Origin: a virus
DNA length: 64,000 bases
IMG/VR virus record: IMGVR_UViG_3300045988_151684
Span: 1-64,000 of that record
Reading direction: 5' to 3' (one strand)
The stretch's first letter is position 1. Every line of letters begins with the position of its first letter. Below the pieces are notes generated by a model. The model did no database searches and had not been told where the DNA came from. It worked only from the letters and a program-made list of their open reading frames with translations. Both the position numbers and the translations under genes were made by a program. Of this stretch, positions 24,365-62,413 are shown piece by piece.

Positions 24365-25387
24365 ATGTTATTTTCAATCTATCGAATTTTTCTGATGCTT
24401 GGGCCTGAATGCAACCTGCAATGTAAATATTGTTTGCAGCATGATATGGCTTCGACCAGCAGTAAACAGATTTCCCAAGAGGTAATCCATTGGATTAAGA
24501 CTCAGGTTCGAAGCCAATCGTCAAAGTTTACGATAACGTTTTATGGCGGAGAGCCTTTGATTTATTGGGATGCGATTCAGCAAACCATAAGAGAAATTGG
24601 AGATGTGGTATCTTTTTCCATCATAACGAATGGAAAATTGCTGGATGAAGAGAAAGTGAATTATCTAAACGATCACAATGTTCATGTTGCTGTATCTTGG
24701 GATGGTAAGAATGTAATGGAAACACGCGGTTATGATGTTTTGAAAAACAATCCGAATATTCCATACATAAACAATTTGAGTATATCAGCGGTTTCGTCCA
24801 AAGCAAACTATCCAAAGGATTTTCTCGATAGTTTAGAGCCGTTTATGCAGACGTATTATGAGATACATCATTCTTATCCGGGGCTTAATATCGACACCAT
24901 TATGGATTTTGGTCATTGTGCTGATTTGGCCGATATGGATTGTGATAAAATTTACCAGCAGATGCAGGAAATCGTTGCGACGGACAACAGGATTTATCAT
25001 CTTTTCAAGCGTGATTTGATTCGAAGGGCTACGCTGTATTTCCCGCACGATACCGATAGAGCTGCTTGTGGCAACGGTATAAGCGTATGGAATGTAGATA
25101 CGGATGGAAATATCTATCGCTGTCACAACTGCGGAGAAAAGATTGGTAGTATAGATGATGATCCGGTTAATGCTTTGATTCGGGCGGTAAGAAAAGACCC
25201 TACGGAAGAGAATTTCAAAATATGCAAGGAGTGTCCGGTGGTCAGCCTTTGCGGCGGAGGGTGTCCTTTGGTCAATCAGGCGGACAGGGAACGGTATTAC
25301 TGTAAGATCAAGCGATCATATTACCTTCCACTGATTGAGTATGCAAATCGGAAAAATGAGGCAGGAAAGGAGATCGTGATTCAATGA
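24365..25387 (+). CDS. radical SAM enzyme with C-terminal SPASM/twitch domain
   Basis: CNLQCKYC (CxxxCxxC) near N-terminus; GGEP motif; C-terminal CGNG...DG.IYRCHNC and CKECPVVSLCGGGCP cysteine clusters. Confidence 0.75.
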   Translation: MLFSIYRIFLMLGPECNLQCKYCLQHDMASTSSKQISQEVIHWIKTQVRSQSSKFTITFYGGEPLIYWDAIQQTIREIGDVVSFSIITNGKLLDEEKVNYLNDHNVHVAVSWDGKNVMETRGYDVLKNNPNIPYINNLSISAVSSKANYPKDFLDSLEPFMQTYYEIHHSYPGLNIDTIMDFGHCADLADMDCDKIYQQMQEIVATDNRIYHLFKRDLIRRATLYFPHDTDRAACGNGISVWNVDTDGNIYRCHNCGEKIGSIDDDPVNALIRAVRKDPTEENFKICKECPVVSLCGGGCPLVNQADRERYYCKIKRSYYLPLIEYANRKNEAGKEIVIQ

Positions 25388-26133
25388 ATTTTTTGGATGA
25401 ATTGGCAGATAAGATGCCTGAACATGACCGGTTACTCCTTGGCGGTATTGTCGGTTCCTTTACTTACAGATTGGGTGATACCTTGAGTGATACGGATATT
25501 CGCTATTATGTCATGCCGACGCTGGATGATTTACTTCGTAGCCGCAAACGCCGGAGGATATTTTTAGATGGGGAAAACGATGTCCAGGTTCATGACATCC
25601 GGCGCTTTCCTTATTTTTTGAATATGGGCGATTTGAATCAAATATCGGTTTTGTTTTCGCCTTTTTTGTATATCGGTGAATCTTATATTGGGTTATCCCA
25701 TCTGCTTTTGGAACGGCGTGAAGAGATTGCTGAGGCCGTTTCCTCCAATATTTACAGTTGGGGGAAATCTATGTTCGAAAAAAAGATGGGACAGCTGGAT
25801 AGCTTTAAATTGAATGAAATCGTATATCAGCGAAACGGATATAACACCAAGGCTGCAGCGCAGGCGATATATCATATTAAGATGATCGGGAAGTATCTGC
25901 ATAATCTGGAATATAACGTAGAAAAACCTTTGGAGAACGCATTGGACTGCAAGGATATTCGTGAAGATATTCTCGCGGTCAAGGACGGAAAATATACACG
26001 GGATGAGTTTTTGAACATAGCCGATGACGCTTTTTCGTTGTATGCCGTGATTGATCGGAACAGTTATTCTAATATGCCCGGATGGGTTGCCTCGGCAATC
26101 AATGATGAGATCAAAAAACATATTGGTGATTAA
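25384..26133 (+). CDS. Pol-beta superfamily nucleotidyltransferase (AbiEii/KNTase/MNT-like fold) with helical C-terminal domain
   Basis: ATGA overlap with upstream rSAM gene; GGIVGS-x11-SDTD matches GS...DxD NTase motif. Confidence 0.55.
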   Translation: MNFLDELADKMPEHDRLLLGGIVGSFTYRLGDTLSDTDIRYYVMPTLDDLLRSRKRRRIFLDGENDVQVHDIRRFPYFLNMGDLNQISVLFSPFLYIGESYIGLSHLLLERREEIAEAVSSNIYSWGKSMFEKKMGQLDSFKLNEIVYQRNGYNTKAAAQAIYHIKMIGKYLHNLEYNVEKPLENALDCKDIREDILAVKDGKYTRDEFLNIADDAFSLYAVIDRNSYSNMPGWVASAINDEIKKHIGD

Positions 26134-26290: not shown

Positions 26291-26524
26291 ATGACACTAA
26301 ATGACGCAGCTATGATCGTATCAATCGCAGCAGCGTGTGGAGGGGCGTTTTATAAGGCTTGTCTTGCGCCACTGCGGGAGAGTATCAATCGACTGAATAA
26401 ACTGATTGATGAGCAGTCGAAGATGATTTCCAGCGATCGGGTGAAGATTGCTGAGATTGAACAGTCGTGCCGGTCGGCGCACCATCGCATTGACCGGCTG
26501 GATAATTTGATGGATGGGAGATGA
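26291..26524 (+). CDS. XhlA-like lysis-associated membrane protein (N-terminal TM + coiled coil)
   Basis: 77 aa; homolog of prophage 2 33752..34018 (shared SAHHR.DRLD); precedes holin and amidase. Confidence 0.5.
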   Translation: MTLNDAAMIVSIAAACGGAFYKACLAPLRESINRLNKLIDEQSKMISSDRVKIAEIEQSCRSAHHRIDRLDNLMDGR

Positions 26525-26696
26525 TAAGGTGATAATCACGACGGATATGATTGTGGGAACGGGACTTGTCGTTGCTTTACTCGCCGCCATTTTTTGCGGC
26601 GGGAGTACGGAGCTTCAAACGACGCTCGGCAGTGGCCTGATCGGCTACCTTGGGCGGACGGCGATCGGGCACGGAGGAGGAGATACGCATGGATAA
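26514..26696 (+). CDS. holin (small 1-2 TM protein)
   Basis: TTD.I...GLVVAL block shared with prophage 2 holin 33568..33762; upstream of endolysin. Confidence 0.5.
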   Translation: MGDDKVIITTDMIVGTGLVVALLAAIFCGGSTELQTTLGSGLIGYLGRTAIGHGGGDTHG

Positions 26697-26859
26697 CCGC
26701 ATACCGACCTTGCAGTATACGCCTTTCGCGGATGCGTTTTGGAATTTCGCGTCCCTGGCAAAGCAGTATCATTTCTACGATGAGGAGGTGGCGCGGATGG
26801 AACAGGCCATGCTGGACATGAATCCCTTTCCGCGCCAGAGAAAGGATGATGTGAAATGA
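26689..26859 (+). CDS. small hypothetical protein in lysis cassette
   Basis: RBS GGAGGAGGAG; overlaps holin end and amidase start. Confidence 0.35.
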   Translation: MDNRIPTLQYTPFADAFWNFASLAKQYHFYDEEVARMEQAMLDMNPFPRQRKDDVK

Positions 26860-27422
26860 AAGTATTTATCAATCCAGGACATGACACGACATACGACAGC
26901 GGCGCGGTCAATCCGAATACGGGGCTGCGTGAGTGCGATGTGGCGGCAGAAGTCGGCGCACGGGTCGCGGCTTATCTTGAGGGAGCAGGTTGTGAGTGCC
27001 AGCTGATGCAGAGCGACAACCTCGCACCGACTGGCGCAGGCCGTTCTGAGTATGCCGACAGACAGGGCTTGACGGTCACGGAGACGGCTAATGAGTGGGG
27101 CGCAGATGTGTTTGTATCTATCCACTGTAATGCGTTCAACGAATCCGCGCACGGTACGGAGGTCGAATGTTACGGTGCAGGAGAGGGCGCACGGCTGGCT
27201 GGCAATATCCAGAAGCAGATTGTCGGGGCACTGGGCACTCTTGACCGTGGCGTGAAATCCATGCCGCATCTTCTCGTGCTCAAATATACGGACATGCCCG
27301 CGTGTCTTGTCGAGATGGCGTTCATCGATAACGACGATGACGCGGAACTGCTGGCAAATAAGCAGGACGATTTCGCTCGTGCAATCGCGCGCGGCGTTAC
27401 TGATTATGAGCAGTCTTTATAA
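26856..27422 (+). CDS. N-acetylmuramoyl-L-alanine amidase (Amidase_3) endolysin
   Basis: FINPGHD...SIHCNAF...MPACLVEMAFIDN signature. Confidence 0.85.
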   Translation: MKVFINPGHDTTYDSGAVNPNTGLRECDVAAEVGARVAAYLEGAGCECQLMQSDNLAPTGAGRSEYADRQGLTVTETANEWGADVFVSIHCNAFNESAHGTEVECYGAGEGARLAGNIQKQIVGALGTLDRGVKSMPHLLVLKYTDMPACLVEMAFIDNDDDAELLANKQDDFARAIARGVTDYEQSL

Positions 27423-27676: not shown

Positions 27677-28618
27677 ATGTGTACTGATAAAGTTAAGGTT
27701 AGAATAGCCTATGATGGCAACGCTCTTTCTGATGGCACCATGGATGTTAAAGACCTAGCCCCGGCGTTGATGGCCTATGCTAACTTTATTATTAGAGCAA
27801 ATCAAGTGATTGGTAATGAGGTACCAATCAATGTGAAGTTGAGAGCTGATGATGTACAAAAAGGTTCATTTGATTTAGTGTTGGAAGTAGTGCAGAGTCT
27901 TTTAGGACAGGCAAAAAGCCTGTTTAAGGTGGCTGAGAACACTGGCTTGAAAGATTTATCAGACCTTATTGGCATCGGAGAAACCATCGGCGGTACAATG
28001 ACAAGTATATTCGGGTTCTTATTGCTTGTGAAAAAACACGGAGGCATTTTAAAACAGAAGCCGATTGAAAGTGGCGTGCAAATTACATTCAAGGATTGTG
28101 TTATACAGAATGTGACAAACAATGTGTACAATGTGTATAAAGACTATGAATCACGAAAAAATTTAGAGGGCGTAGTTGAGCCGCTGAAACGAGATGGCAT
28201 TAGCAGCTTTCAGTATAGGGATGCAGAGAAACCTTCAAGTAAAGAGGCACTGCTAGTTATTAACAAGGATGATATACAGGCATTTGCTTCACCGGAAAAA
28301 GCAGAGGGCGAGCAGATTGTTAATGAAATTTCTGGCAGGATGGTTTTTCACATAGTCGGCATAGTATTTGATGAAAATCAAAAATGGCGATTCTCTGATG
28401 GAGAATCGACTTTTTGGGCAAAAATTGCAGATAACGATTTTTGGAGTTACGTTGAAGATGGTACATATGCATTTGCCAAAGGAGATCAGCTTGAGGTTGA
28501 GTATACGATTAGACAAACAGTACAAGCTGGTGGGAAATCAAACGTTGAGCGTGTCATAACAAAGGTTGTACGAAAAATTCCACGCCCAACCCAGATAAAA
28601 TTAGATTTTGAAAAATAA
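27677..28618 (+). CDS. stand-alone 313-aa hypothetical protein (AT-rich accessory gene, candidate defense/abortive infection)
   Basis: own promoter, strong RBS, downstream hairpin/T-run; GC much lower than prophage 1; no recognisable motif. Confidence 0.6.
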   Translation: MCTDKVKVRIAYDGNALSDGTMDVKDLAPALMAYANFIIRANQVIGNEVPINVKLRADDVQKGSFDLVLEVVQSLLGQAKSLFKVAENTGLKDLSDLIGIGETIGGTMTSIFGFLLLVKKHGGILKQKPIESGVQITFKDCVIQNVTNNVYNVYKDYESRKNLEGVVEPLKRDGISSFQYRDAEKPSSKEALLVINKDDIQAFASPEKAEGEQIVNEISGRMVFHIVGIVFDENQKWRFSDGESTFWAKIADNDFWSYVEDGTYAFAKGDQLEVEYTIRQTVQAGGKSNVERVITKVVRKIPRPTQIKLDFEK

Positions 28619-28945
28619 ACTCTATATCAATAAGGTCTATACTGGCAAGATAATGCCGGGTATGGGCCTTATTTTTGTTTCTGCTAGACTATGAGGAGCT
28701 TTTCCATAATGAACGAAAAGATACTGAGAATTTTTCTGCAAATATTTAAATATATTATTAGCATATTGTTGGACATGCCGTATTTTTGCCGCTCAAACAG
28801 GGGACTTTTGCCGCTCAAGCGTATAAATGCATATAAAAGTGTATGCAAGTGTTTTCCCAGATAATTTTTAAAAACCTAATAACTACGCGGTTTCTAGACG
28901 TTTTTTACAAACGTATATAAACATATATAAAAGGATATTTTGTTT

Positions 28946-28974
28946 ACTTCCGATAATTTATACTTATCGGAAGT
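28946..28974. repeat. 11-bp perfect inverted repeat ACTTCCGATAA-n7-TTATCGGAAGT in AT-rich non-coding gap
   Basis: seen in sequence; followed by TTTTTGTT. Confidence 0.5.
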
Positions 28975-29184
28975 TATGACCTTTTTGTTAATGCTTGTTA
29001 ATATTTGTGCTTTAACCCTTGCGCCGTCGCGGACTTATTGGAATCACAAAAAATGTTTGTTTATATTTATTAATGTCTGTAAATAAGATTTTCCGGACGC
29101 ATGGCGGAAAAATGGCGGAAGAAATGAAATCATGGACAGGGTTTAAAACGGATGACGAAATTTTTTCGTTCAGACTATATTTTA

Positions 29185-29268
29185 TCAATTCTCAAGGTAA
29201 ATCAACGCCATCACTGCATTGGCCACAATCAGCCATGTAATAATTTTCCTTTTGGTTTCCAATGTCAT
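29185..29268 (-). CDS. 27-aa hydrophobic peptide MTLETKRKIITWLIVANAVMALIYLEN
   Basis: RBS AAGAAAGGGG; adjacent to conserved GGAGG.TTTCGCCTCCC hairpin. Confidence 0.3.
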   Translation of the reverse strand: MTLETKRKIITWLIVANAVMALIYLEN

Positions 29269-29335
29269 TGCTATCTGCCCCTTTCTTATGTATAATTAGG
29301 GCTAAGCAGGAGGATTTCGCCTCCCGCGCCCCGGT
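29268..29335 (+). promoter_or_regulatory. TTGCTA-17-TATAAT promoter followed by hairpin GGAGGATTTCGCCTCC (motif shared with 55924..55939)
   Basis: seen in sequence; no ORF downstream before terminator at 29465..29518. Confidence 0.35.
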
Positions 29336-29464
29336 GTGCTACTTAATTAGGAATGCGATTAACTGGAGTAGGAAAGAAACTAGCTATCGTAATCACTAAT
29401 TCTAAGTCAGCACGCTTTTCTGCTCTTTCGAGCCGTTTTCGGTGTTCCGTGCGGAATATTTTTT

Positions 29465-29518
29465 TGCATAAAAAAATAAGCCCTATACCAGCATTGTGCC
29501 AGTATAGGGCTTTTGTTA
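29465..29518. terminator. bidirectional Rho-independent terminator
   Basis: AAGCCCTATA...TATAGGGCTT stem flanked by A-run and T-run. Confidence 0.6.
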
Positions 29519-30325
29519 ATATCCTGTGAATGTATTGAATGACGTTGCTCTGTACCAATACAACGCCCACAAAACAAAGTCAACTATCATCACGAAAAAC
29601 AAAAACAGGTTTATTCCTGCTATGGTTGATAGCTGAGGTTCTTTTTTCTTGTCATTTATCTTTGATGACACCGCTAATGGCTTCATGTTCACTTTTGCTA
29701 TGAAATCCAGCAGTAAATTCAGTAAGTTGAAAAGCATCATTGCAATCAGGATAATCACAAACGTCAAGCGATATATGGAAACTTTGTCTATATTGTTCAA
29801 TATAGAGCTGGAAAACACCATACCCGCTACAAACGTAATAACTATGGATGAGAAAATGCCAAGGATTGTAATATAGTCCTTCTGCATATTAGCCGCCTTT
29901 TCGCTCAGTGACCTTATTTCCTCACCAGATTTGCGATTTTTATCCTCCATGCGCTGAGCTATCTCTTGTGTGTAGCTGATGCGAGATATTTCCAGGTTCA
30001 CATGGTCATAAAGCTTTTCAAGCTTGTCACACAGCTCTGATGTCACATGGCCACGTCCTTCATCCCGCCACTGCACGGCAGATTCATACAATATTTGGAT
30101 ATTCCCTTGTAATTTTGCCATATCCAAATCATTATCAGCATCGATTCGTGTTATGACCCCGAACATCCCAGAATACAGGTGCCGGAAATCATCCGCATAA
30201 ATATCCTGCAATATAAAAATGTACTGTTCAAGGTTCTTTTCTGTTACATTCGTGTCTAAGCGAGCCAGCTTTAGAAGAAATTCCTGCAGTGCCTGCTGTT
30301 TATCACGCACATTCATACTCTGCAA
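29516..30325 (-). CDS. putative membrane toxin (soluble N-domain + 3 C-terminal TM helices), partner of Panacea-like gene
   Basis: start overlaps upstream gene by 23 nt; predicted TM segments at the C-terminus. Confidence 0.5.
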   Translation of the reverse strand: MQSMNVRDKQQALQEFLLKLARLDTNVTEKNLEQYIFILQDIYADDFRHLYSGMFGVITRIDADNDLDMAKLQGNIQILYESAVQWRDEGRGHVTSELCDKLEKLYDHVNLEISRISYTQEIAQRMEDKNRKSGEEIRSLSEKAANMQKDYITILGIFSSIVITFVAGMVFSSSILNNIDKVSIYRLTFVIILIAMMLFNLLNLLLDFIAKVNMKPLAVSSKINDKKKEPQLSTIAGINLFLFFVMIVDFVLWALYWYRATSFNTFTGY

Positions 30326-30782
30326 TCACTTCCTTGGGTATAATCTGCATCTTGCCGGCACCGCCCTGATACACTAAATCCCACGGTTTCCCTTCGGCAT
30401 GTGTCTCCTGAACTAAGTCCCACGGTCTCTTGCTCAACTTGTCAGCTACTACCTGGTCGATAATTGCCTTTTCATCAGCAGAAAAAGCTTCTTTTGGCTC
30501 TTTGCGTTCATAAATCGCAGCTGCCCCATAACCGCAATACTCACGGTAAACGCTTCTGACAACAGGACCGAATTGCCACGCTTCTACCTCATCCATAAAC
30601 AAAGCTCGCTTTTGTTGTATCAGAAACGTAGCTTGAACATAGTATAGAATCTTTTGCAACTGCAAATTGCTGATAGCCTTGTTTTCCTTCGTGCACTTGC
30701 TGATAATGTATCTTGCTACGTCATTAGCCGTGTGCGTGCCTTCAAAATCATTATTTTTATCGCCTTTGAAGAAAAAAAACAT
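30303..30782 (-). CDS. Panacea (DUF4065, SocA-like) domain protein, putative antitoxin
   Basis: LQKILYYVQATFLIQ...L..DE.EAWQFGPVVRSVY resembles DUF4065 signature; likely start MFFFFKG at 30782 with RBS GAGGAG. Confidence 0.5.
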   Translation of the reverse strand: MFFFFKGDKNNDFEGTHTANDVARYIISKCTKENKAISNLQLQKILYYVQATFLIQQKRALFMDEVEAWQFGPVVRSVYREYCGYGAAAIYERKEPKEAFSADEKAIIDQVVADKLSKRPWDLVQETHAEGKPWDLVYQGGAGKMQIIPKEVIAEYECA

Positions 30783-30811
30783 GGTTTTCAGCTCCTCTCT
30801 ATTGAATTTTT

Positions 30812-30841
30812 TATTATAGCCATATGATATATGGTTACACA
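30812..30841 (-). promoter_or_regulatory. promoter (TTGTGT-18-TATAAT) with embedded palindrome CCATAT-n3-ATATGG (putative autoregulatory operator)
   Basis: palindrome at 30820..30834 lies in the spacer. Confidence 0.4.
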
Positions 30842-31082
30842 AAAAATTACTTTTGTCAAACCCTGCATATTTAACCTAATCCGCTAGAAGTCCTCCACCT
30901 CTTAGTTGGGGGATGAAGGCGGGCATGGTGAATATACATTTATACATTTGAACGGCAAAAATCCCCTGTTTGAGTGGCAAAAATATGGCACCTTTTTGCA
31001 GGCTGGGCCGGAGCCAAAACGCCGTATTTTTGCCGTTCCGCCGCATACAGATATGTTGCAAAACGGCGGCAACCATAATATA

Positions 31083-31133
31083 AAATCAACCCCATACCGG
31101 CATAATGTGCTGACATGGGTTGATTTTTTGTTA
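31083..31133. terminator. bidirectional terminator
   Basis: ATCAACCC...GGGTTGAT stem with T-runs on both strands. Confidence 0.5.
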
Positions 31134-31349
31134 ATTTTTCTTTGTCAGCTTCGGCCCAAATACCCGTGTCATACCTTCAATGGTAATTAGCCAGGTAGAA
31201 CCTGACTGCCGTGCTTCGTTTTTTTCGAAACGTGGTGCGGCTTTTTTATAGCCGGTGCAGGCCTGACGGACGGTGACAACAGACTTGCCCCAGCGCTTAG
31301 CCGCCTCCGCAACCGTCATGACATTATTTAATAATTCTTTGCCTTCCAT
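31131..31349 (-). CDS. helix-turn-helix DNA-binding protein (excisionase/HTH_17-like)
   Basis: MTVAEAAKRWGKS...WLIT motif; GC-rich unlike neighbours. Confidence 0.5.
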   Translation of the reverse strand: MEGKELLNNVMTVAEAAKRWGKSVVTVRQACTGYKKAAPRFEKNEARQSGSTWLITIEGMTRVFGPKLTKKN

Positions 31350-31549
31350 TTCCGCAGCTCCTTAATTCCGCAAATCATTACCCATGCCCCCATAATTGAA
31401 AGGAACACTCCCATGTCTGTACCATCTGGCAATAGACAATCCAGCAGGAATGCCAAAGCTGTGATGAATACTATCAATTTCGTATTGCTCATATCTTATT
31501 CAGAATGGTATAATTCCAGTGAGGGGTGTCGGCCCCTCACCGGTTTTCT

Positions 31550-31672
31550 TTATTTGCTCAAGCTTTCAATGATTGAAGCTAATCCCTTTAACACGATGCC
31601 AAGTCCCGTTAATAGGATTCCTACTGCTTTTAGCAGGTCAGCGATAAGCTTGAGCTTTCTGTTTGATACCAT
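31550..31672 (-). CDS. 40-aa amphipathic/hydrophobic peptide MVSNRKLKLIADLLKAVGILLTGLGIVLKGLASIIESLSK
   Basis: perfect RBS AAAGGAGGG 6 nt upstream of ATG. Confidence 0.3.
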   Translation of the reverse strand: MVSNRKLKLIADLLKAVGILLTGLGIVLKGLASIIESLSK

Positions 31673-31764
31673 CTGTTTCCCTCCTTTCTATGATTTAATT
31701 ATACATCGAATTGCGTTGTTTATCAACGCAATTCGATTGATTTCCTTAGAAATTTACACAAAGA

Positions 31765-31810
31765 TAAGGCCCGTACCAACTGAGATTGCCGGTACGGGCC
31801 TGTTATTTAC
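31765..31810. terminator. Rho-independent terminator
   Basis: AGGCCCGTACC...GGTACGGGCCT 11-bp stem. Confidence 0.5.
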
Positions 31811-32794: not shown

Positions 32795-33409
32795 TCACTC
32801 ATCATAATAGATGCTTGCATCATAGCCAAAGCCAGCTAAATTGTCCGTGAACTGGTGCATCCGAATGATGTTATTCGGATATTCCTCTTTGAGATAATCC
32901 CGACAGGCCGTTTCGAACGTGTTGCCCTCACCATAATTTGCCACCCAGTATGGCACATAATCGGGCAGGTCTTCGATTCGGATGTGATGATCCCCTTCAG
33001 CGCTCAGCCAGTTCCAGCTGGCGTAGATTCCATTGTACTGATGGCCATAGTCTGTCAATCGATTGATGAACGCCCGGCAGCACTCGGTCACATCACCGTT
33101 AAGCATCCGTTTTGACTCTGCATCATACCAAATACCCAGCGACGGGGTTTCGCCCCTCAGATATTCCTTCAGCCATGCAGCCACCTGATCAGCCTCAGCC
33201 ACCGCCTCATCATAGGTGCAAGCGCGGGCAAAATAATAAACGCCAAATTGTAAACAATTTTCCACAGCCTTATTGATATGATCCACAAACATATCATCCA
33301 GGTGGGAATGTTCGCCAATCTTCAATATAACGCCCTCGATACCGGCATCTTTCACGGCCTGCCAGTCCACATTCTCCTGCCATGCAGAAATATCGATTAC
33401 CTTCATCAT
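32795..33409 (-). CDS. GH25 family lysozyme (muramidase) endolysin
   Basis: MMKVIDISAWQ..VDW...GIEGVILK...GVYYFA signature. Confidence 0.85.
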   Translation of the reverse strand: MMKVIDISAWQENVDWQAVKDAGIEGVILKIGEHSHLDDMFVDHINKAVENCLQFGVYYFARACTYDEAVAEADQVAAWLKEYLRGETPSLGIWYDAESKRMLNGDVTECCRAFINRLTDYGHQYNGIYASWNWLSAEGDHHIRIEDLPDYVPYWVANYGEGNTFETACRDYLKEEYPNNIIRMHQFTDNLAGFGYDASIYYDE

Positions 33410-34182: not shown

Positions 34183-34581
34183 TTACTTGCTATTTACTTT
34201 GAACCCGATAGTATTGTCATTCTGTGGCTCTATCACTGTATTGTTAACTATTGAATACTTGCCGCTGCTTTCCTTAGTGATTTGTATTATTGGCAGCATT
34301 TTGGTCCCATCACCTGCCTCATCAAAATATATACCATCATTTTTCATCACCATACGGGCTTCACTGTCATTATCAAACAATATACTTACTGAATTATTAG
34401 CTAAAAGTTCAATATTACGTGTTGGATCGGATGGAATACTTATATCATTATATCCATTAAACAATACTCCATTTATTTTTGCACCAGGTGTTAACTGCCT
34501 AGCAAATGGTGCCATAAAATACGCCTGCATTTGTGCAATTATATATTTAATATTATCCAATGTTATTAAAGATTCAGCCAT
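34183..34581 (-). CDS. hypothetical tail-module protein
   Basis: AT-rich block, co-oriented. Confidence 0.4.
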   Translation of the reverse strand: MAESLITLDNIKYIIAQMQAYFMAPFARQLTPGAKINGVLFNGYNDISIPSDPTRNIELLANNSVSILFDNDSEARMVMKNDGIYFDEAGDGTKMLPIIQITKESSGKYSIVNNTVIEPQNDNTIGFKVNSK

Positions 34582-34586
34582 TTTAA

Positions 34587-35630
34587 TTAACCTCCAATAA
34601 AATTTATTTTAAATTCACTTTTTATAGGAACATATTTTTTATCTTTCTTAAAAATTATTTTCCCCGTATCAGCATCATAAGTAGCGGTCATTTCATCATA
34701 ATCATATCCGTTTTCATAAAGACATTTTCCGCTCAATGAATGTTCCAATTCTGCAATCATGTTAATTTTAAATTTTTTATAAAAATCATAACTATTCCAT
34801 TCATCTATATTACATGTACATACAATAGTTCGAGTAGCTGGTGTATAATCACTACCATATGTATATAATTCCATATTAATATCAATGGTTTCTTCTTTAT
34901 TAGCTGGCGCTGCTGATATTTGATTGTCTATTATTTTTTTTATTACCAATAAATCATTAAATGTTATTTTAATTTTTTTATAGTAGTATTCATTACACTC
35001 TAATTCTATATCATACCAAGTAGGCTTTATTACTATTGGAACAGTCCCATATGCATTTAGATTTTTTACGCTAGATGCTTCAAACATCATTTTACCGCCA
35101 TATTTTGTAGCCCAGTCTTTTACTGATAACATATTTAACGTCCAAGGAAATATTTGTGGCAAGCTGCGGCATCCGCTAAACATCAAATAAAAATTTTGAC
35201 ATTTTGATGTATCAAATTCAGATAATTTTTGTAATTTTTGACAATCATAAAACATCGCTTCTGCACTACCAAGCAAAGGTGTTTTTAAACCATTTATTGA
35301 AATCAGTTCCGTGCATCCATCAAAACAATGATTAGCACTAATAGCATTGCTTAAATCCAAATTATCTATATTCTTTAATGCTGAACATCCTTTAAACAAC
35401 TCATCAGCACATGTTAATTTAGAATAATCTATATCATACGGTATTTCTGTCATTGATTTATATGTATCTGGATATAAATCAATCATTCTATAGCCAGTTT
35501 TTTCAAGCAAATAACTTTTATTTGTTTGCGTTGTCTTTAACAATTCCTTGGTGTCTTGTGTTACTGATTTATTTAAAAATTTACTTTTAATATTATTAGC
35601 TTGACCATGGCTTAATATTTTATTTCCCAT
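34587..35630 (-). CDS. BspA-type leucine-rich-repeat (LRR_5) tail-associated protein
   Basis: repeats F.GC..L..I......N...MF..C..L. Confidence 0.5.
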   Translation of the reverse strand: MGNKILSHGQANNIKSKFLNKSVTQDTKELLKTTQTNKSYLLEKTGYRMIDLYPDTYKSMTEIPYDIDYSKLTCADELFKGCSALKNIDNLDLSNAISANHCFDGCTELISINGLKTPLLGSAEAMFYDCQKLQKLSEFDTSKCQNFYLMFSGCRSLPQIFPWTLNMLSVKDWATKYGGKMMFEASSVKNLNAYGTVPIVIKPTWYDIELECNEYYYKKIKITFNDLLVIKKIIDNQISAAPANKEETIDINMELYTYGSDYTPATRTIVCTCNIDEWNSYDFYKKFKINMIAELEHSLSGKCLYENGYDYDEMTATYDADTGKIIFKKDKKYVPIKSEFKINFIGG

Positions 35631-35642
35631 TATATCACCTGC

Positions 35643-35963
35643 TTATTGATATACATTTAATGGAACTTTTTTGCCCTGTATGTTGCAATTTTGCATATAT
35701 TCATATATTTCGCTATTTCCTTCAATATGCACATTATCTAATATGCCATCATAAACTGTTTGCCGTGCATAATATCGTCTATCTGCTTTTATAATTTGTT
35801 TAATACTACCATCAGATATTACACCATGTATTATTTCATTATCCATATTTAAATCGCTATTAGCTGTTATAACAAATTCTCCTTTTTTATAACAGTTGCT
35901 TTTCAAATATGATACTAACTGCTTTATATCATCAATTGTTGCCCATTTATCAGCCATTTTCAC
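35643..35963 (-). CDS. hypothetical protein
   Basis: ORF. Confidence 0.35.
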   Translation of the reverse strand: MKMADKWATIDDIKQLVSYLKSNCYKKGEFVITANSDLNMDNEIIHGVISDGSIKQIIKADRRYYARQTVYDGILDNVHIEGNSEIYEYMQNCNIQGKKVPLNVYQ

Positions 35964-36523
35964 ACCTTCACACGTCCATTAATTATAATCATATTTAAAC
36001 TTGTCCCCAAATTATCAGCGGTCATATTTGCTATTAATGAATCTGGTACATCTTCAAATCGTGCAATTGTTACGCTGCTTCCTGAAAATATGCCCTTTAT
36101 ATTATCTATTCTTTCATCTATGCTTTTACATGATATAATCCATGGGAAAACTCCTGGTAATGATGAACAATCTTTAAACATATCTGCTAATGATACCGCA
36201 TTAGATGTATCTAGCCAATTTATATTTTTCAATTTAGCGCAGCCAGAAAAAGCTGCTTTATAATTTATCACCTTATTCCTTCGAAACTTCGTTATTACAT
36301 CATCTGGCAATAAATTTATGTTATTGTATGAATCGGTATAATTATTTGACATATAATTAGTTGCATCAATATCCGTAATATTTTTTAATGATGATAATAC
36401 GTTATCTAGGTCTTCTTTAGTTGCATGATTACTATAATCTTTTTTTAATAAATAGGTTGCTTTAGTTTTTTTAGCTAATTCATTTATGGCTTCGCTGCCA
36501 ACCAACTTTATATTACTTGCCAT
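35960..36523 (-). CDS. BspA-type LRR tail-associated protein
   Basis: AFSGCAKLKNI...MFKDCSSL repeat units. Confidence 0.45.
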   Translation of the reverse strand: MASNIKLVGSEAINELAKKTKATYLLKKDYSNHATKEDLDNVLSSLKNITDIDATNYMSNNYTDSYNNINLLPDDVITKFRRNKVINYKAAFSGCAKLKNINWLDTSNAVSLADMFKDCSSLPGVFPWIISCKSIDERIDNIKGIFSGSSVTIARFEDVPDSLIANMTADNLGTSLNMIIINGRVKV

Positions 36524-58295: not shown

Positions 58296-58562
58296 CTATT
58301 CAGTCCACTTCATAACGCCAGCTTTTACCATCTCATTGGCGTCTTTGAATCCATGACTTTGTGCATGGTCATTGCTGACAAAAGTTGACCATTGCCCGCA
58401 TATTTTACAAATGCCCGCCCGCCAGCGCGTCGGTTTAACCTGCCGTGGTACAACCGCTGGATGCCGATGATTATCTTGCTCAATGATGGCGCATATTGAC
58501 TGACTGATTTCTTTCCGCCCACAGCGTTGCTGCTTTAAATACTCGCTTTGATGTTTTTTCAT
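58296..58562 (-). CDS. hypothetical Cys-rich (zinc-finger) protein
   Basis: CGRK...CAII; CKICGQW. Confidence 0.35.
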   Translation of the reverse strand: MKKHQSEYLKQQRCGRKEISQSICAIIEQDNHRHPAVVPRQVKPTRWRAGICKICGQWSTFVSNDHAQSHGFKDANEMVKAGVMKWTE

Positions 58563-59803
58563 GACGCTGTCTCCCTGATTTTCTGCTCAAGCTGGCGTGT
58601 TTGCATAATTAATGTGTTGATATGGTTAAGGGCAATTTGCAGAGCGTCGATAGTCTCATCGTCCCCGCCGTTTTCCCAAGCGTCCGACTGTTGTTCGTAT
58701 AGTTCCGCCCGCGCTTTTTCCAGCGTATATGCCGCCAGCTCGTAGCCTCTTGCTTCTGCCAGCTTGCTGGTGTCCGGTTCCGTGTCATAATGAATGGTTT
58801 CCTGCGGCTCGTTTTGGTCATCCGAAATGTCCAAGGTGTTTGCTGGTGTCTGCTGTGCTTTCATTTTCAGCAGTTCGTTCCCCAATGCATCCTGCGTAAT
58901 CATTTCCAGCGCACCATCCCATGCTGCTTTATAAGAAACATATTTCTGGTTTTTGTCGACATACTCGAAAGCGTGAATCTGTCCATCTGATTCAGTAGCT
59001 TGTCCGCAATATCCAGCATAATACCGCCCGTCATATTGCCCAATTATTATAAATAATTCTCCAGCGCTTTCAGGAATATCTTGCAGGCGGGTTTTGGTTT
59101 CTTTTGGCAAAGGTTTATCATCTTGCAGGTCTGCCAGCTTGACCTTAGCCCCTTTTGTCGCATGTATAACTTTTTGTTCTTTTTCTGACTTACTGGCCAG
59201 CTTGTCGGCCACTCCCGTGGATATATTGCCGTCTTTGTATTCCTGCTTATATTCATCCGTCAGGCTTTTTTCAATCTTTTCCAAACGACCAACGGCTGAA
59301 AGGCTCATGCCTAACGCCTCCGCGATATGTTCACGACGGCGCCCTTTTATTTTCTCCCCAGCATCTTCCCGACGTTTAAATATCTCGTTCATCCGCTTGA
59401 CGGCCTGCATTTTCTCCCAATCGGAAATAACACGGTTCGGCAGATTTGCTTCTAACAGCATTTGCTCGGCATCCGTTTCGTCAGCATCGATAATTACGCA
59501 ATCGACTTTTCTAAATTCTTCTTTTCCTTCCGCTGCCAGCCGTTCATGCATCAGCTTACGGCGATGTCCCGAAATTAAAGTATACATACCACCGCCCGCC
59601 GGCCGAACGATAAGCGGATCTAAAAGTCCAAACTGCTCGATTGAATCTTTAAGCAGCGCGTTTTTTTTCTCAATCTCTGTACCGCCCGTTACCTCAAAGT
59701 CGTTATTTTCATCGTCTGCGATATTGGCAAGGTCAATTTTTACAATTTCCCTCGTTTTCTCTGCCATGTAGTCGCCCATAGCGCCCATCATGCTAAAAGC
59801 CAT
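58559..59803 (-). CDS. ParB-like nuclease domain (ParB/Srx N-terminal) protein
   Basis: RBS GGGAGG; LIVRPAGGGMYTLISGHRRKL ParB box. Confidence 0.7.
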   Translation of the reverse strand: MAFSMMGAMGDYMAEKTREIVKIDLANIADDENNDFEVTGGTEIEKKNALLKDSIEQFGLLDPLIVRPAGGGMYTLISGHRRKLMHERLAAEGKEEFRKVDCVIIDADETDAEQMLLEANLPNRVISDWEKMQAVKRMNEIFKRREDAGEKIKGRRREHIAEALGMSLSAVGRLEKIEKSLTDEYKQEYKDGNISTGVADKLASKSEKEQKVIHATKGAKVKLADLQDDKPLPKETKTRLQDIPESAGELFIIIGQYDGRYYAGYCGQATESDGQIHAFEYVDKNQKYVSYKAAWDGALEMITQDALGNELLKMKAQQTPANTLDISDDQNEPQETIHYDTEPDTSKLAEARGYELAAYTLEKARAELYEQQSDAWENGGDDETIDALQIALNHINTLIMQTRQLEQKIRETAS

Positions 59804-59829
59804 TATAAAACCTCCCTTATGCCTTATGT

Positions 59830-60612
59830 TCAAATTGTACCCAAGTTGGGTACAACCTCAGCTATAAAAGTACGATAATCTACTGCCGATCGGCATTTTT
59901 TTGCGTACTCAACGACTGGAATATGCGCAAACACTGATTCTTTAACTTTTACACTCATGTGGATTACTGACTTAAATACCGGGAATTTTGTTTTTTCGCG
60001 CAGAAAAGTCAGTCCATCCCGATCCATTTTGGTGCGGGCGCTGAATTTCGTAATCAGTACCCCTGCCAGTTTGCAGTCCGGGTTATAACTCTGCCTTGCT
60101 TCCAGTATACGGTTTTCTACTTCCCGCAAGCCATCAATACTGAAGCCGTCTATCTCCATCGGCACAATAACATCCGTGGCGGCTAAAAATGCATTGATTA
60201 CGTTCGGTGTCATATTCGGGGCGCAATCGATAATGACAAAATCAAAGCTATCGGCAACGCTTCCCAACGCCTCTTTTAAAATCAGTGCTGCGCTAACCCC
60301 CTGATCATTGCGCTGTCTAGCCATAAGTTCCATGTTCACGCTTGCCAAATCCATATCGCCCATGATTACAAAAAGATTTTCGTATTTCGTCGGGCGGATA
60401 GCCTTCCGCAGGTCAGCCCCACGGAACACATCAGCAATAGTCGGGACGCCTGCCGTTTTGCGCTGTTCGTAAAATGCGGATGCGTTGCCCTGTATGTCAT
60501 TGTCTACCAGCAAGACACGCTTACCTTCCTCAGCCAATAAATAAGCCATATTGCAGGCGGTGGTAGTCTTTGCGACGCCACCTTTCATGTTGACAATAGC
60601 AAATATTCTCAT
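59830..60612 (-). CDS. ParA/Soj-family ATPase
   Basis: deviant Walker A NMKGGVAKTTTA; start MRIFAIV with RBS GGAGGG. Confidence 0.8.
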   Translation of the reverse strand: MRIFAIVNMKGGVAKTTTACNMAYLLAEEGKRVLLVDNDIQGNASAFYEQRKTAGVPTIADVFRGADLRKAIRPTKYENLFVIMGDMDLASVNMELMARQRNDQGVSAALILKEALGSVADSFDFVIIDCAPNMTPNVINAFLAATDVIVPMEIDGFSIDGLREVENRILEARQSYNPDCKLAGVLITKFSARTKMDRDGLTFLREKTKFPVFKSVIHMSVKVKESVFAHIPVVEYAKKCRSAVDYRTFIAEVVPNLGTI

Positions 60613-61151
60613 TGTTTGCCCTCCTTGTGCACTATAAAACTGTTTTTTTGCCATGCATCATCCAGCATAAGCGTCAGTACATTACAGCCGTTAACCACGA
60701 CCATATCTCCGATGCATACCAGTTCTAGTTTATCGCCTATCATGTTCAGGTAATCTCCTTGGACTAAAATATAACCGTCCGCCCCAGCATAAAGCCTGCC
60801 GTCCATAGGGGTATTTTCGTAAAGAACAACAGCAATACCAGTCGGGGTTAATATTTCGCCCTGTTCAGCCTGCTTTATCCATGATAGATATTTTTCCAGC
60901 ACACCATCACAATCCGGCTCCCTTGCCGACTGCACCCAATTGGACTTTATGCGCTCATAATAAACGTTTCGTTTTTCTACTTCCAGCTTGCACTGGATCC
61001 GGAACGCATCGCGCTGGCGCAGGTGTAAAATAAATGTTTCTGTCACCAAGTAATGTTCTTCATCACGATCAAGCAACATGAACGTGCCGGACTGTTTCAC
61101 TGCCCGTACTACTGCCGAACAGTTTATCGGATCTATTTTTTCTTCCTCCAT
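60609..61151 (-). CDS. hypothetical protein
   Basis: ORF overlapping ParA start. Confidence 0.4.
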   Translation of the reverse strand: MEEEKIDPINCSAVVRAVKQSGTFMLLDRDEEHYLVTETFILHLRQRDAFRIQCKLEVEKRNVYYERIKSNWVQSAREPDCDGVLEKYLSWIKQAEQGEILTPTGIAVVLYENTPMDGRLYAGADGYILVQGDYLNMIGDKLELVCIGDMVVVNGCNVLTLMLDDAWQKNSFIVHKEGKQ

Positions 61152-61169: not shown

Positions 61170-62010
61170 CTACATGTTTTTATCTTGCAACGTCTGCACT
61201 TTTCGGGGCTTTTGCCAACACAAAACGTGCTGAGCAGTTCCCCCGCCTTTTTGGGATTCATTCTTCTGCTTTCCCTCCAGCTTGACGTATACCGCGTATT
61301 GCATGGGGTAGCCGTACCGGTTTACGCCACTATAAGATAAATTCTTGTCGATGTAATAGCCTTTTCTTTCCGGCGGTTCCTTCCTCCACGTTTTAGCATG
61401 GACAACACGAGCCTTTGGCGTCGCCTCTCGCAAGTTACGGGATGACGAAAATCTTTTTTTTATTATCGGATCGTCGCTTAGAAAAGTTTCCTCCCCGTTC
61501 TTGATGATGTACGCTGCCACACTGTGCCAGTTCTGCGTTTTATCAAGGTGGCTGGCGTGAACATGTACCCACTCACCACCGTTTACAATATTCTGCCAGT
61601 TGGTCGCTATTATCTCCGTGTCAATTTTGGTCAGTATCATGTGCAAATGGATTGCTCCACGTTTTCCACGACCAACCGAAAAGATATACTTACATTCTTT
61701 GCCATCCTGCCGATATTTCTTGCGGATCCGCTTCAAGAACTCTTTTATATTTTTCTTTACTGTATCACTGTCAGGAGTGCTCTTTGCTGGGTAGGTCAGT
61801 GTTACCCATAGATCTCCCGGCTGAAAGTTCTGTTTATCTCGCAGAAGTCTCCACACCTTTCTGACTGCTTCCTTGCTCTGCCATCTTAGCTGTTCTTCTG
61901 GTGTAGCTCTCTGTGCTGCTGCTTTCTCTCTTTTTTCTCTTATTCCATATCGGCCATTGGTATATTTATGGACTTCTACCACGTTTCCCCGATCTATTAC
62001 TTTTTCAAGA
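61170..62010 (-). CDS. rolling-circle replication initiator (HUH endonuclease, Rep)
   Basis: start MAYLEK with RBS GGAGG; HUH motif GAIHLHMIL and downstream Tyr motif VAAYIIKNGEE. Confidence 0.6.
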
Positions 62011-62173
62011 TAAGCCATTATGCAGCACCTCCTTCTGCTACTCTTTATTTTTTTTATTATTCTTTTATTATTGGTTCTTAAAACAATATGTTTAACAAGC
62101 CCAAACAGTCCCCCAGCGGGGAATAAAAAAGCAAGCTTGAAAAAAGCGCCAGGCAATAACTGGCGCGCTTTTC

Positions 62174-62413
62174 TTACTCGTCTATGGTCGCCGATGCCAA
62201 TGTTGCCAGTAAATCCTCGCCCATGTGCTCTACAAAAAACGCATGGAGGCACGATTTGGGGACTCGGCACTCATTGCCGAATCTGATAGCCCCCAGCAAT
62301 CCGGCGTCTATCAGTCCTTTGACAAATTTTCTTCCCGTCCGCATCCGCTTTGCGGTTTCTTCTAAATTCATCAAGCGGTCAGCATCGTCTAAAATCAACA
62401 CATTTTCAGTCAT
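62174..62413 (-). CDS. HTH_17/excisionase-family DNA-binding protein
   Basis: LMNLEETAKRMRTGRKFVKGLIDAGLL.AIRFGNECRVPKSCL; RBS AAGGAGG. Confidence 0.5.
   Translation of the reverse strand: MTENVLILDDADRLMNLEETAKRMRTGRKFVKGLIDAGLLGAIRFGNECRVPKSCLHAFFVEHMGEDLLATLASATIDE

Follow-up and report, generated by a model that had tools for sequence, protein, structure and literature searches.

A probable PanA–PanT toxin–antitoxin cassette of the T4 kind at the end of a Selenomonas-type phage-like element

A 64,000-nucleotide stretch of viral DNA (IMG/VR record IMGVR_UViG_3300045988_151684, positions 1 to 64,000; hereafter the window) carries two overlapping minus-strand genes, panA and panT, as the final coding unit of a phage-like element. 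What kind of module is this pair, how would it work, and what does it do for the element that carries it? We conclude, with good confidence, that panA and panT form a type II toxin–antitoxin (TA) cassette of the PanA–PanT (PanAT) family with a toxin of the T4 kind, and that the cassette is a moron that follows the lysis genes and closes a Selenomonas-type (Negativicutes) phage-like element. The evidence that carries this conclusion is as follows: the domain identity of PanA, the homology of both proteins to a validated pair, the transmembrane (TM) architecture of PanT, the finding that the two genes are consistently adjacent and diverge together, and the boundaries of the cassette. The module is no new kind of system: the PanAT family and its T4 cluster have already been described. 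What is added is the placement of a Selenomonas-type phage cassette in that family, within the T4 membrane-toxin cluster. Coordinates are collected in Table 1.

The two proteins and their verified relatives

A pattern scan in which each species was represented by one genome yielded 80 loci with PanT relatives, one of which (L056) is from Helicobacter sp. 13S00482-2. By exact-sequence look-up, the L056 pair is WP_095295401.1/WP_095295403.1, an experimentally verified PanA–PanT pair whose mode of action is given as 'Membrane' (Kurata et al. 2022, Table 1, PMC8832971). The Helicobacter sp. PanT shuts down transcription, translation and replication together, and it causes strong depolarisation with no uptake of SYTOX Green (PMC8832971). 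Dataset S1 of the same study assigns the pair to toxin cluster T4, with PanA classed as 'noNTD', gene order A|T, a gap of −11, and the flag 'NotPhage'. The window PanA is 42% identical to WP_095295401.1 (E 1e-34), and the window PanT is 33% identical to WP_095295403.1 over residues 36–254 (BLASTP, E 2e-32). The T4 entries of H. rodentium, C. volucris, H. mesocricetorum and DSM 106076 are also among the scan loci (L041, L045, L049 and L067).

The window and Helicobacter pairs are alike in organization. In both, the antitoxin gene comes first and the genes overlap (−11 in Helicobacter, −14 in the window), PanA is a stand-alone Panacea protein, and the toxin has a helical/coiled-coil N-terminal part followed by C-terminal TM helices. 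The invariant motifs FRHxYS, LxDHxNL, YITILGIF and NIDKxSIYRL are shared. They differ in that the Helicobacter pair lies on a Campylobacterota chromosome, whereas the window pair lies on a Negativicutes phage-like element; in addition, the coiled-coil linker of the window toxin is about 35 residues shorter, and the window PanA has an extra N-terminal tail. The initial annotation, made from the sequence without database searches, had proposed a PanA–PanT-like module with an overlapping membrane protein; the homology of both proteins to the Helicobacter pair, and the pairing conserved among their relatives, bear this out.

The same annotation had read the 159-residue product of panA as a Panacea (DUF4065) antitoxin, a reading that it staked on a DUF4065 match. 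Such a match is found: PanA residues 42–134 match Pfam PF13274 SocA_Panacea with E 2.3e-17 and 64.4 bits (cut-off 25.7). PanA also matches phrog_1281 (E 7e-43) and, below the equivalog cut-off of 190, NCBIfam NF047745 (SocA; E 4e-25, 88.4 bits). A relative in Selenomonas ruminantium, WP_074571507.1, is labelled 'Panacea domain-containing protein'. The alignment to the Helicobacter PanA begins at residue 19, leaving an extra N-terminal tail of 16–18 residues in the window protein. No DNA-binding domain (helix-turn-helix (HTH), ribbon-helix-helix or similar) was found in PanA, for which the Pfam search gave the Panacea domain only, and since the tail is too short to hold such a domain, PanA appears to have none.

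The two minus-strand open reading frames (ORFs) overlap, as first annotated. By sequence reading, the panA frame is also readable from TTG 30842; ATG 30782, however, has GAGGAG 9 nt before it, and its 159-residue product is found verbatim in public data by exact-sequence look-up. For panT, the annotated 23-nt overlap and 269-residue product correspond to a start at TTG 30325. The overlap stands, but its extent does not: we favour ATG 30316, which gives an overlap of 14 nt and a product of 266 residues, because homologue N-termini (MNxxDKQQ, MxDKQ) and a 266-residue RefSeq relative, WP_074571508.1, point to that start. Among the criteria of Kurata et al. 2022 for a PanAT locus is a layout of two genes on one strand with an intergenic gap of at most 100 nt, and the window pair has this layout. 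No second copy of the pair was found within the window.

PanT was predicted to have a soluble N-terminal domain and three C-terminal TM helices, and hydropathy and an AlphaFold2 model now agree on this architecture. Residues 1–140 are soluble, with a maximum Kyte–Doolittle 19-residue mean of 0.26; three hydrophobic segments, at about 149–171, 184–206 and 231–253, coincide with helices of the model. The model was built on 25 homologues and has a mean predicted local distance difference test score of 79, with about 90 for the N-domain. Its helices span residues 3–18, 29–39, 51–60, 66–86, 93–174, 181–210 and 229–263, so that the fold is a small helical bundle (3–86), a very long helix (93–174) running into TM1, and the TM helices 181–210 and 229–263. 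The loop between TM2 and TM3 is rich in lysine (six K/R in 23 residues), and that between TM1 and TM2 is short and neutral. By the positive-inside rule, the lysine-rich loop suggests a protein oriented N-in, C-out.

The PanT family alignment has 28 invariant columns; the window panT is intact, and its product has every one of these residues. Within the helical N-terminal domain (about residues 1–145), the motifs FRHxYS and KLYDHxNL are invariant and include R45-H46-x-Y48-S49 and K101-L102-x-D104-H105. In or beside the TM helices, the polar residues S169, N175, N197 and N236 are invariant and D246 is nearly so. The invariant residues R45, H46, Y48, S49, K101, D104, H105 and R112 of the T4 N-domain, which the original coiled-coil description omitted, offer targets for mutagenesis.

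PanT matches phrog_5763, a family of unknown function (E 6e-28), and no family in Pfam, NCBIfam or PADLOC above threshold. Several weaker matches were set aside. The CTD11 domain of ABC-3C systems (Pfam, E 0.066) was matched by only three of 25 family members, none of them better. Vma12 was matched by 21 of the 25 (best 3.7e-6), in the coiled coil and TM1 only, and the window PanT scores 16.4 bits against a cut-off of 25.5; we treat this as compositional similarity. Matches to XhlA, Syntaxin, CorA and MCU are below threshold and occur in few members.

Comparison with other known systems helps to place the pair. The membrane PanTs of E. coli STEC O31 (T3) and of Bartonella apis/choladocola (T12, which is D11 in NetFlax) resemble the window toxin in that a stand-alone Panacea protein neutralises them and in that they depolarise the membrane. 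In contrast, they are short peptides whose N-terminal region is charged, and the window PanT has 266 residues and a folded N-domain; they form large SYTOX-positive pores, whereas the T4 representative depolarises without permeabilisation. No search that was made gave sequence similarity of the window PanT to the T3 or T12 toxins. SocA–SocB, the type VI TA system of Caulobacter whose SocA is the founding Panacea antitoxin, has the SocA/Panacea domain in common with PanA. SocA is a proteolytic adaptor for SocB, a soluble toxin that blocks replication. The window pair differs from SocA–SocB in that PanA scores below the SocA equivalog cut-off and its partner is a membrane protein with three TM helices, not a SocB-like soluble toxin. 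Finally, the RosmerTA toxin RmrT(D5) of Gordonia phage Kita belongs, like PanT, to a phage-borne two-gene module, and the membrane region of this depolarising toxin is likewise at its C-terminus; an anti-phage role has been demonstrated for the module. It differs in forming pores with increased permeability and in an antitoxin of the HTH-plus-protease type rather than Panacea. Homology of the window pair to RosmerTA RmrT(D5) was not detected.

Conserved pairing and cassette boundaries

Is the pairing of panA with panT a property of the family or of this one locus? The window PanA and PanT served as queries against the ORFs of every locus. Each of the 80 genome loci has a PanA homologue immediately upstream of panT in the same orientation (phmmer E 1e-18 to 1e-109 to the window PanA), and the PanT ORF is complete in 78; the other two (L051 and L081) are cut by a contig end. 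The gaps between the genes are mostly −26 to +8 nt. The hosts include Selenomonas, Lachnospiraceae, Helicobacter, Campylobacter and Eggerthellaceae among others, and the genes flanking the pair vary between loci. In IMG/VR, 79 viral contigs have PanT relatives, with PanA directly upstream in 74. Among the five exceptions, three contigs begin inside the toxin and two (L147 and L152) have the TM module only. Wherever PanT has the full architecture and the upstream flank is readable, PanA is present, that is, in 78 of 78 genome loci and 74 of 74 IMG/VR loci. The pairwise identities of PanA and PanT correlate with r = 0.86 (Mantel p <= 0.001, 130 non-redundant pairs), which argues that the two genes travel and diverge together.

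The T4 cluster is very large and very often phage-borne. A PanT profile search over 1.84 billion cluster representatives, with clusters at 50% identity, found 2,743 relatives at E <= 1e-3, of which 704 reach E <= 1e-30. A DNA search of 50,697 phage records gave no match, and a protein search of phage records gave a single one, to a Helicobacter rodentium phage record.

At the edge of the family, L147 (3662–5558) and L152 (3794–5549) retain the PanT TM module (xVTILGIFxxIVL...) behind a different, longer N-terminal domain. Their upstream partner, of 245–263 residues, has no Pfam match and looks distantly Panacea-like by eye. The arrangement suggests swapping of domains or partners.

The extent of the mobile unit is given by two relatives. 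The locus of S. ruminantium S137 (L004) is 93.4% identical to window positions 30860..29499, its homology starting exactly at 30860 and ending within the panT terminator at 29499. Upstream, the S137 flank is only 73–84% identical and lacks roughly 900 bp (31757..30861) that in the window hold a 54-residue ORF, an HTH_59 gene and a repeat element. Because S137 homology stops at its edges, we take the mobile unit to be a 1.36-kb cassette (30860..29499) that runs from TTGACA at 30859 into the hairpin 29512..29478. The S137 comparison indicates that the pair moves between phages as a promoter-to-terminator cassette of this size. The second relative, Selenomonadales metagenome-assembled genome (MAG) HGM14095 (L003, 99% identical), is collinear with the window from 36406 down to 28946, except at about 32.04–32.17 kb and 29123–29450, and then diverges into genes for single-stranded DNA-binding protein (SSB) and topoisomerase.

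With a putative promoter and a terminator of its own, the cassette is a classic moron, that is, a set of accessory genes that carries both signals. Promoter function is proposed from a perfect −10 box preceded by −35-like elements (Table 1); the promoter scan made no call here because the −35 paired with it, TTGTGT, matches at three of six positions. The initial annotation had the module bounded by bidirectional terminators, and this is half right. The panT terminator is strong, is flanked by T-rich runs on both strands and is usable bidirectionally. On the upstream side, however, the sole terminator-like hairpin (31133..31076, with a 24-nt loop) follows the stop of the HTH_59 gene about 270 nt before the promoter, and the terminator scan did not call it. 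Nor is the pair AT-rich, as had been stated: with a GC content of 0.406 it lies between its own element (0.375) and the window (0.423), at the 38th percentile of equal-sized windows.

Three terminator-type hairpins in the window, at 28630–28678, 29478–29512 and 31758–31808, share the core CCTATAC.GGCA ... TGCC.GTATAGG and a T-run. They follow the LAPAL-family gene of the convergent element, panT, and a 178-residue gene, respectively, and another copy lies at the S137 junction. This looks like a terminator module reused at cassette junctions.

A 59-nt inverted repeat, 88% complementary, flanks the PanAT region, with copies at 28776–28834 (+) and 30932–30990 (−). One copy follows the convergent element's LAPAL gene, and the other is between the HTH_59 gene and the panA promoter. 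Each contains two direct 13-mers, TTTTGCCRYTCAA, spaced by 22 nt. All four exact copies of the 13-mer in the window are in the repeat; five are found when one mismatch is allowed, a number reached in 0 of 100 shuffles. The repeat was not found in Rfam, in IMG/VR, or in fetched loci other than L003. It could be a set of paired regulator-binding sites or a recombination site. A mobile element bounded by the repeat was considered and rejected, as the cassette occurs in S137 with no such repeat and the homology with L003 extends past the repeat; since S137 lacks it, the repeat lies outside the PanAT cassette. Beyond the panT terminator, a segment of about 328 bp (29123–29450) that is missing in L003 has no convincing ORF and no Rfam match.

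Table 1. Positions of the genes and signals discussed (window coordinates unless stated otherwise).
Feature	Position	Strand	Remarks
panA	30303..30782	−	159-aa stand-alone Panacea (DUF4065) protein, predicted antitoxin; ATG start 30782
panT	29516..30316	−	266-aa putative toxin; best start ATG 30316; end 29516
Ribosome-binding site GAGGAG	30792..30797	−	9 nt 5′ of panA ATG; read from sequence
Cassette upstream edge with −35-like elements	30837..30860	−	S137 homology starts at 30860
TTGACA, perfect	30859..30854	−	35 nt from TATAAT, too distant to pair; kept in S137
TTGTGT	30842..30837	−	18 nt upstream of TATAAT; kept in S137
−10 box TATAAT, perfect	30813..30818	−	kept in S137 and L003
Palindrome CCATAT-ATC-ATATGG	30820..30834	−	in promoter spacer, between TTGTGT and TATAAT
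Intrinsic terminator	29468..29512	−	16-pair hairpin 29512..29478 and T-run; terminator scan, inverted repeat
panT frameshift site in L003	L003:6020-6035		window about 30275
ParB_N protein	58559..59833	−	element B
ParA	59830..60654	−	element B
Rep (REP_ORF2-G2P)	61170..62270	−	element B

Proposed mechanism, role and rival explanations

How would such a pair act? The toxicity of PanT, depolarisation, direct neutralisation by PanA, and the topology of PanT are proposed by analogy with the Helicobacter homologue and with other stand-alone PanAs, as follows. Since the genes overlap, panA and panT are probably co-transcribed from the sigma-70-type promoter (TATAAT 30818..30813), and panT translation is probably coupled to that of panA through the 14-nt overlap. 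Hydropathy, the AlphaFold2 model and the distribution of charge suggest that PanT most likely inserts into the cytoplasmic membrane with its N-domain and the lysine-rich TM2–TM3 loop facing the cytoplasm. There it would probably dissipate the membrane potential through a narrow conduit lined by S169, N175, N197, N236 and D246; that the path is narrow and not a large pore is suggested by how the Helicobacter homologue behaves and by the conservation of polar residues within the membrane. PanA most likely binds PanT directly in the cytoplasm and neutralises it. This last step is suggested by the PanA–toxin complexes of Kurata et al. and by two stand-alone PanAs studied by mutagenesis, direct toxin neutralisation by stand-alone Panacea having been found in two tested systems (Ernits et al. 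2023, PMC10440598).

Several points weigh against reading the pair as a membrane-toxin TA module. The window toxin is only 33% identical to the validated member, and the two toxins differ in the length of the coiled-coil linker. The T4 pair of a Clostridioides difficile phage was scored 'not Toxic' in E. coli (PMC8832971), so toxicity across T4, or in a heterologous host, is not guaranteed. A pore mechanism has no structural precedent, since fold searches with PanT gave generic helical or coiled-coil matches only. PADLOC has no model for PanA or PanT, with no match to the PADLOC-DB v2 defence models at E <= 1 for either protein. Co-divergence, for its part, could simply reflect the tight linkage of panA and panT, and its support for a physical PanA–PanT complex is only indirect.

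What does the element gain from the pair? The best of the further explanations, which we regard as possible and hold tentatively, is a prophage-encoded anti-phage system acting by abortive infection or superinfection exclusion: PanA would sense an invader and free PanT, and the lysogen would be killed or arrested before the invader replicates. It is compatible with the TA mechanism. The cassette occupies the accessory stretch that follows the lysis genes of its phage-like element, its relatives occur on the 79 IMG/VR viral contigs, and the S. sputigena relative is between the SSB/RusA genes and the terminase gene of a prophage. Ernits et al. prefer the view that Panacea senses cues that activate TA systems, and toxSAS toxins, some of them neutralised by PanA, can protect against phages (PMC10440598). 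However, no T4-type PanAT pair is known to protect against phage, PADLOC gave no match, and the validated Helicobacter pair is flagged 'NotPhage'. It is tempting, if speculative, to go one step further and to propose an abortive-infection switch in which PanA senses a component of an incoming rumen phage and the FRHxYS/KLYDHxNL domain gates a narrow, ion-conducting bundle of three TM helices. If true, this less likely proposal would for the first time assign a defence role and a gating mechanism to T4, a group of more than 2,700 sequence clusters.

Alternatively, the product of the downstream gene might not be toxic in its host: it could be a harmless membrane protein, or a toxin that has decayed, carried along with a Panacea gene. 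We consider this improbable. It would fit the C. difficile phage T4 pair, non-toxic in E. coli, and the eight PanTs found to be non-toxic by Kurata et al. (PMC8832971). It would also fit the state of panT in some relatives. In L003, a 5-nt tandem duplication (TAAAG) shifts the frame of panT after about codon 13 and leaves panA intact, which is either toxin inactivation or an assembly error; in about ten of the 80 genome loci the toxin ORF starts more than 90 nt after panA, and panA is split in one locus. Against it, the window panT is intact with all 28 invariant residues, and the strict conservation of the pair among thousands of relatives indicates selection on both genes. Moreover, disruption mostly of the toxin and rarely of the antitoxin is what is expected of a costly toxin, and the disruptions hint at such a cost, although the count is crude and MAG errors may contribute to it.

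The promoter region raises a separate question. The initial annotation had taken the palindrome CCATAT-n3-ATATGG for the operator of an autoregulated operon, bound by PanA or by a PanA–PanT complex. Autoregulation is common among type II TA operons, the spacer between a −35-like element and a −10 box is the classic position for an operator, and 343 PanAs have an N-terminal HTH. The window PanA, however, has no HTH and aligns to the 'noNTD' PanA from residue 19 on, and the palindrome itself is at chance level. The window holds 278 perfect 6+6 inverted repeats (spacer 0–8), and 16% of 70-nt windows contain one. In S137, 93% identical, the stretch reads TCCTAT-ATC-GTATGG, with three substitutions in 17 nt, none compensatory, that break three of the six pairs. 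Among 134 distinct upstream regions, the longest perfect inverted-repeat arm averages 5.87 nt, compared with 5.38 nt in dinucleotide shuffles, and only 9% of the regions beat 95% of their shuffles, which amounts to no real surplus of palindromes. Ernits et al. 2023 also consider stand-alone Panacea probably not to be a transcriptional autoregulator (PMC10440598). The palindrome is probably a chance feature rather than a demonstrated operator, and autoregulation through it is very unlikely. A short AT-rich palindrome within a promoter should be taken for an operator only where it is conserved.

Least credible of all is a part in phage lysis, in which PanT would be a membrane protein resembling a holin or XhlA and PanA would inhibit it: the pair is about 2 kb downstream of the GH25 endolysin gene on the same strand, and four of 25 family members have weak XhlA matches (best E 3e-4), but these are sub-threshold and span only the coiled coil and one TM helix, the cassette has its own promoter and terminator and is set apart from the lysis genes by other genes (about 900 bp) and a terminator-like hairpin, the S. 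sputigena pair adjoins a terminase gene and not a lysin gene, and the Helicobacter pair is chromosomal and flagged 'NotPhage'. Thus a benign or decayed protein, autoregulation through the palindrome, and a lysis role are each less likely than a role in phage defence.

Other features of the two elements

The window consists of two convergent, related phage-like elements, here called A (1–28900, plus strand) and B (29500–64000, minus strand). Each has one terminase-sized ORF of about 580 residues and one portal-sized ORF of 418 residues; in element A these are near 3–6 kb, followed by a radical-SAM gene, an amidase endolysin gene (26856..27422) and the LAPAL-family gene (27677..28618). Element B has Rep, ParA and ParB-like genes at about 58.5–62.3 kb and, toward its end, the GH25 endolysin gene (33409..32795), several small genes and the HTH_59 gene (31349..31131). 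The presence of ParA, ParB_N and Rep suggests that element B is a phage-plasmid rather than an integrated prophage, and no integrase gene or, by tRNA scan, tRNA gene was seen in the window. Rfam gave no match in the whole window at the gathering threshold and, at an E-value threshold, two sub-threshold small RNA matches only in 28500–31400.

Just upstream of the element A endolysin gene, at 24365–26133 (+), a 340-residue radical-SAM protein (PF04055, phrog_1802) overlaps a 249-residue protein with a weak nucleotidyltransferase PHROG match; together they may serve an accessory or anti-defence function. Element A ends with the gene for a 313-residue LAPAL-motif protein (NCBIfam NF053583, E 1e-58; phrog_3243). 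Annotation describes the LAPAL family as putatively structural in phages, yet the gene is here in an accessory position after the endolysin. Finally, the region of the element A amidase endolysin (26400–27400) has a GC content of 54–57% in surroundings of roughly 40%, and in element B the GC content falls to 25–30% near 34400–36000; these shifts suggest a mosaic origin.

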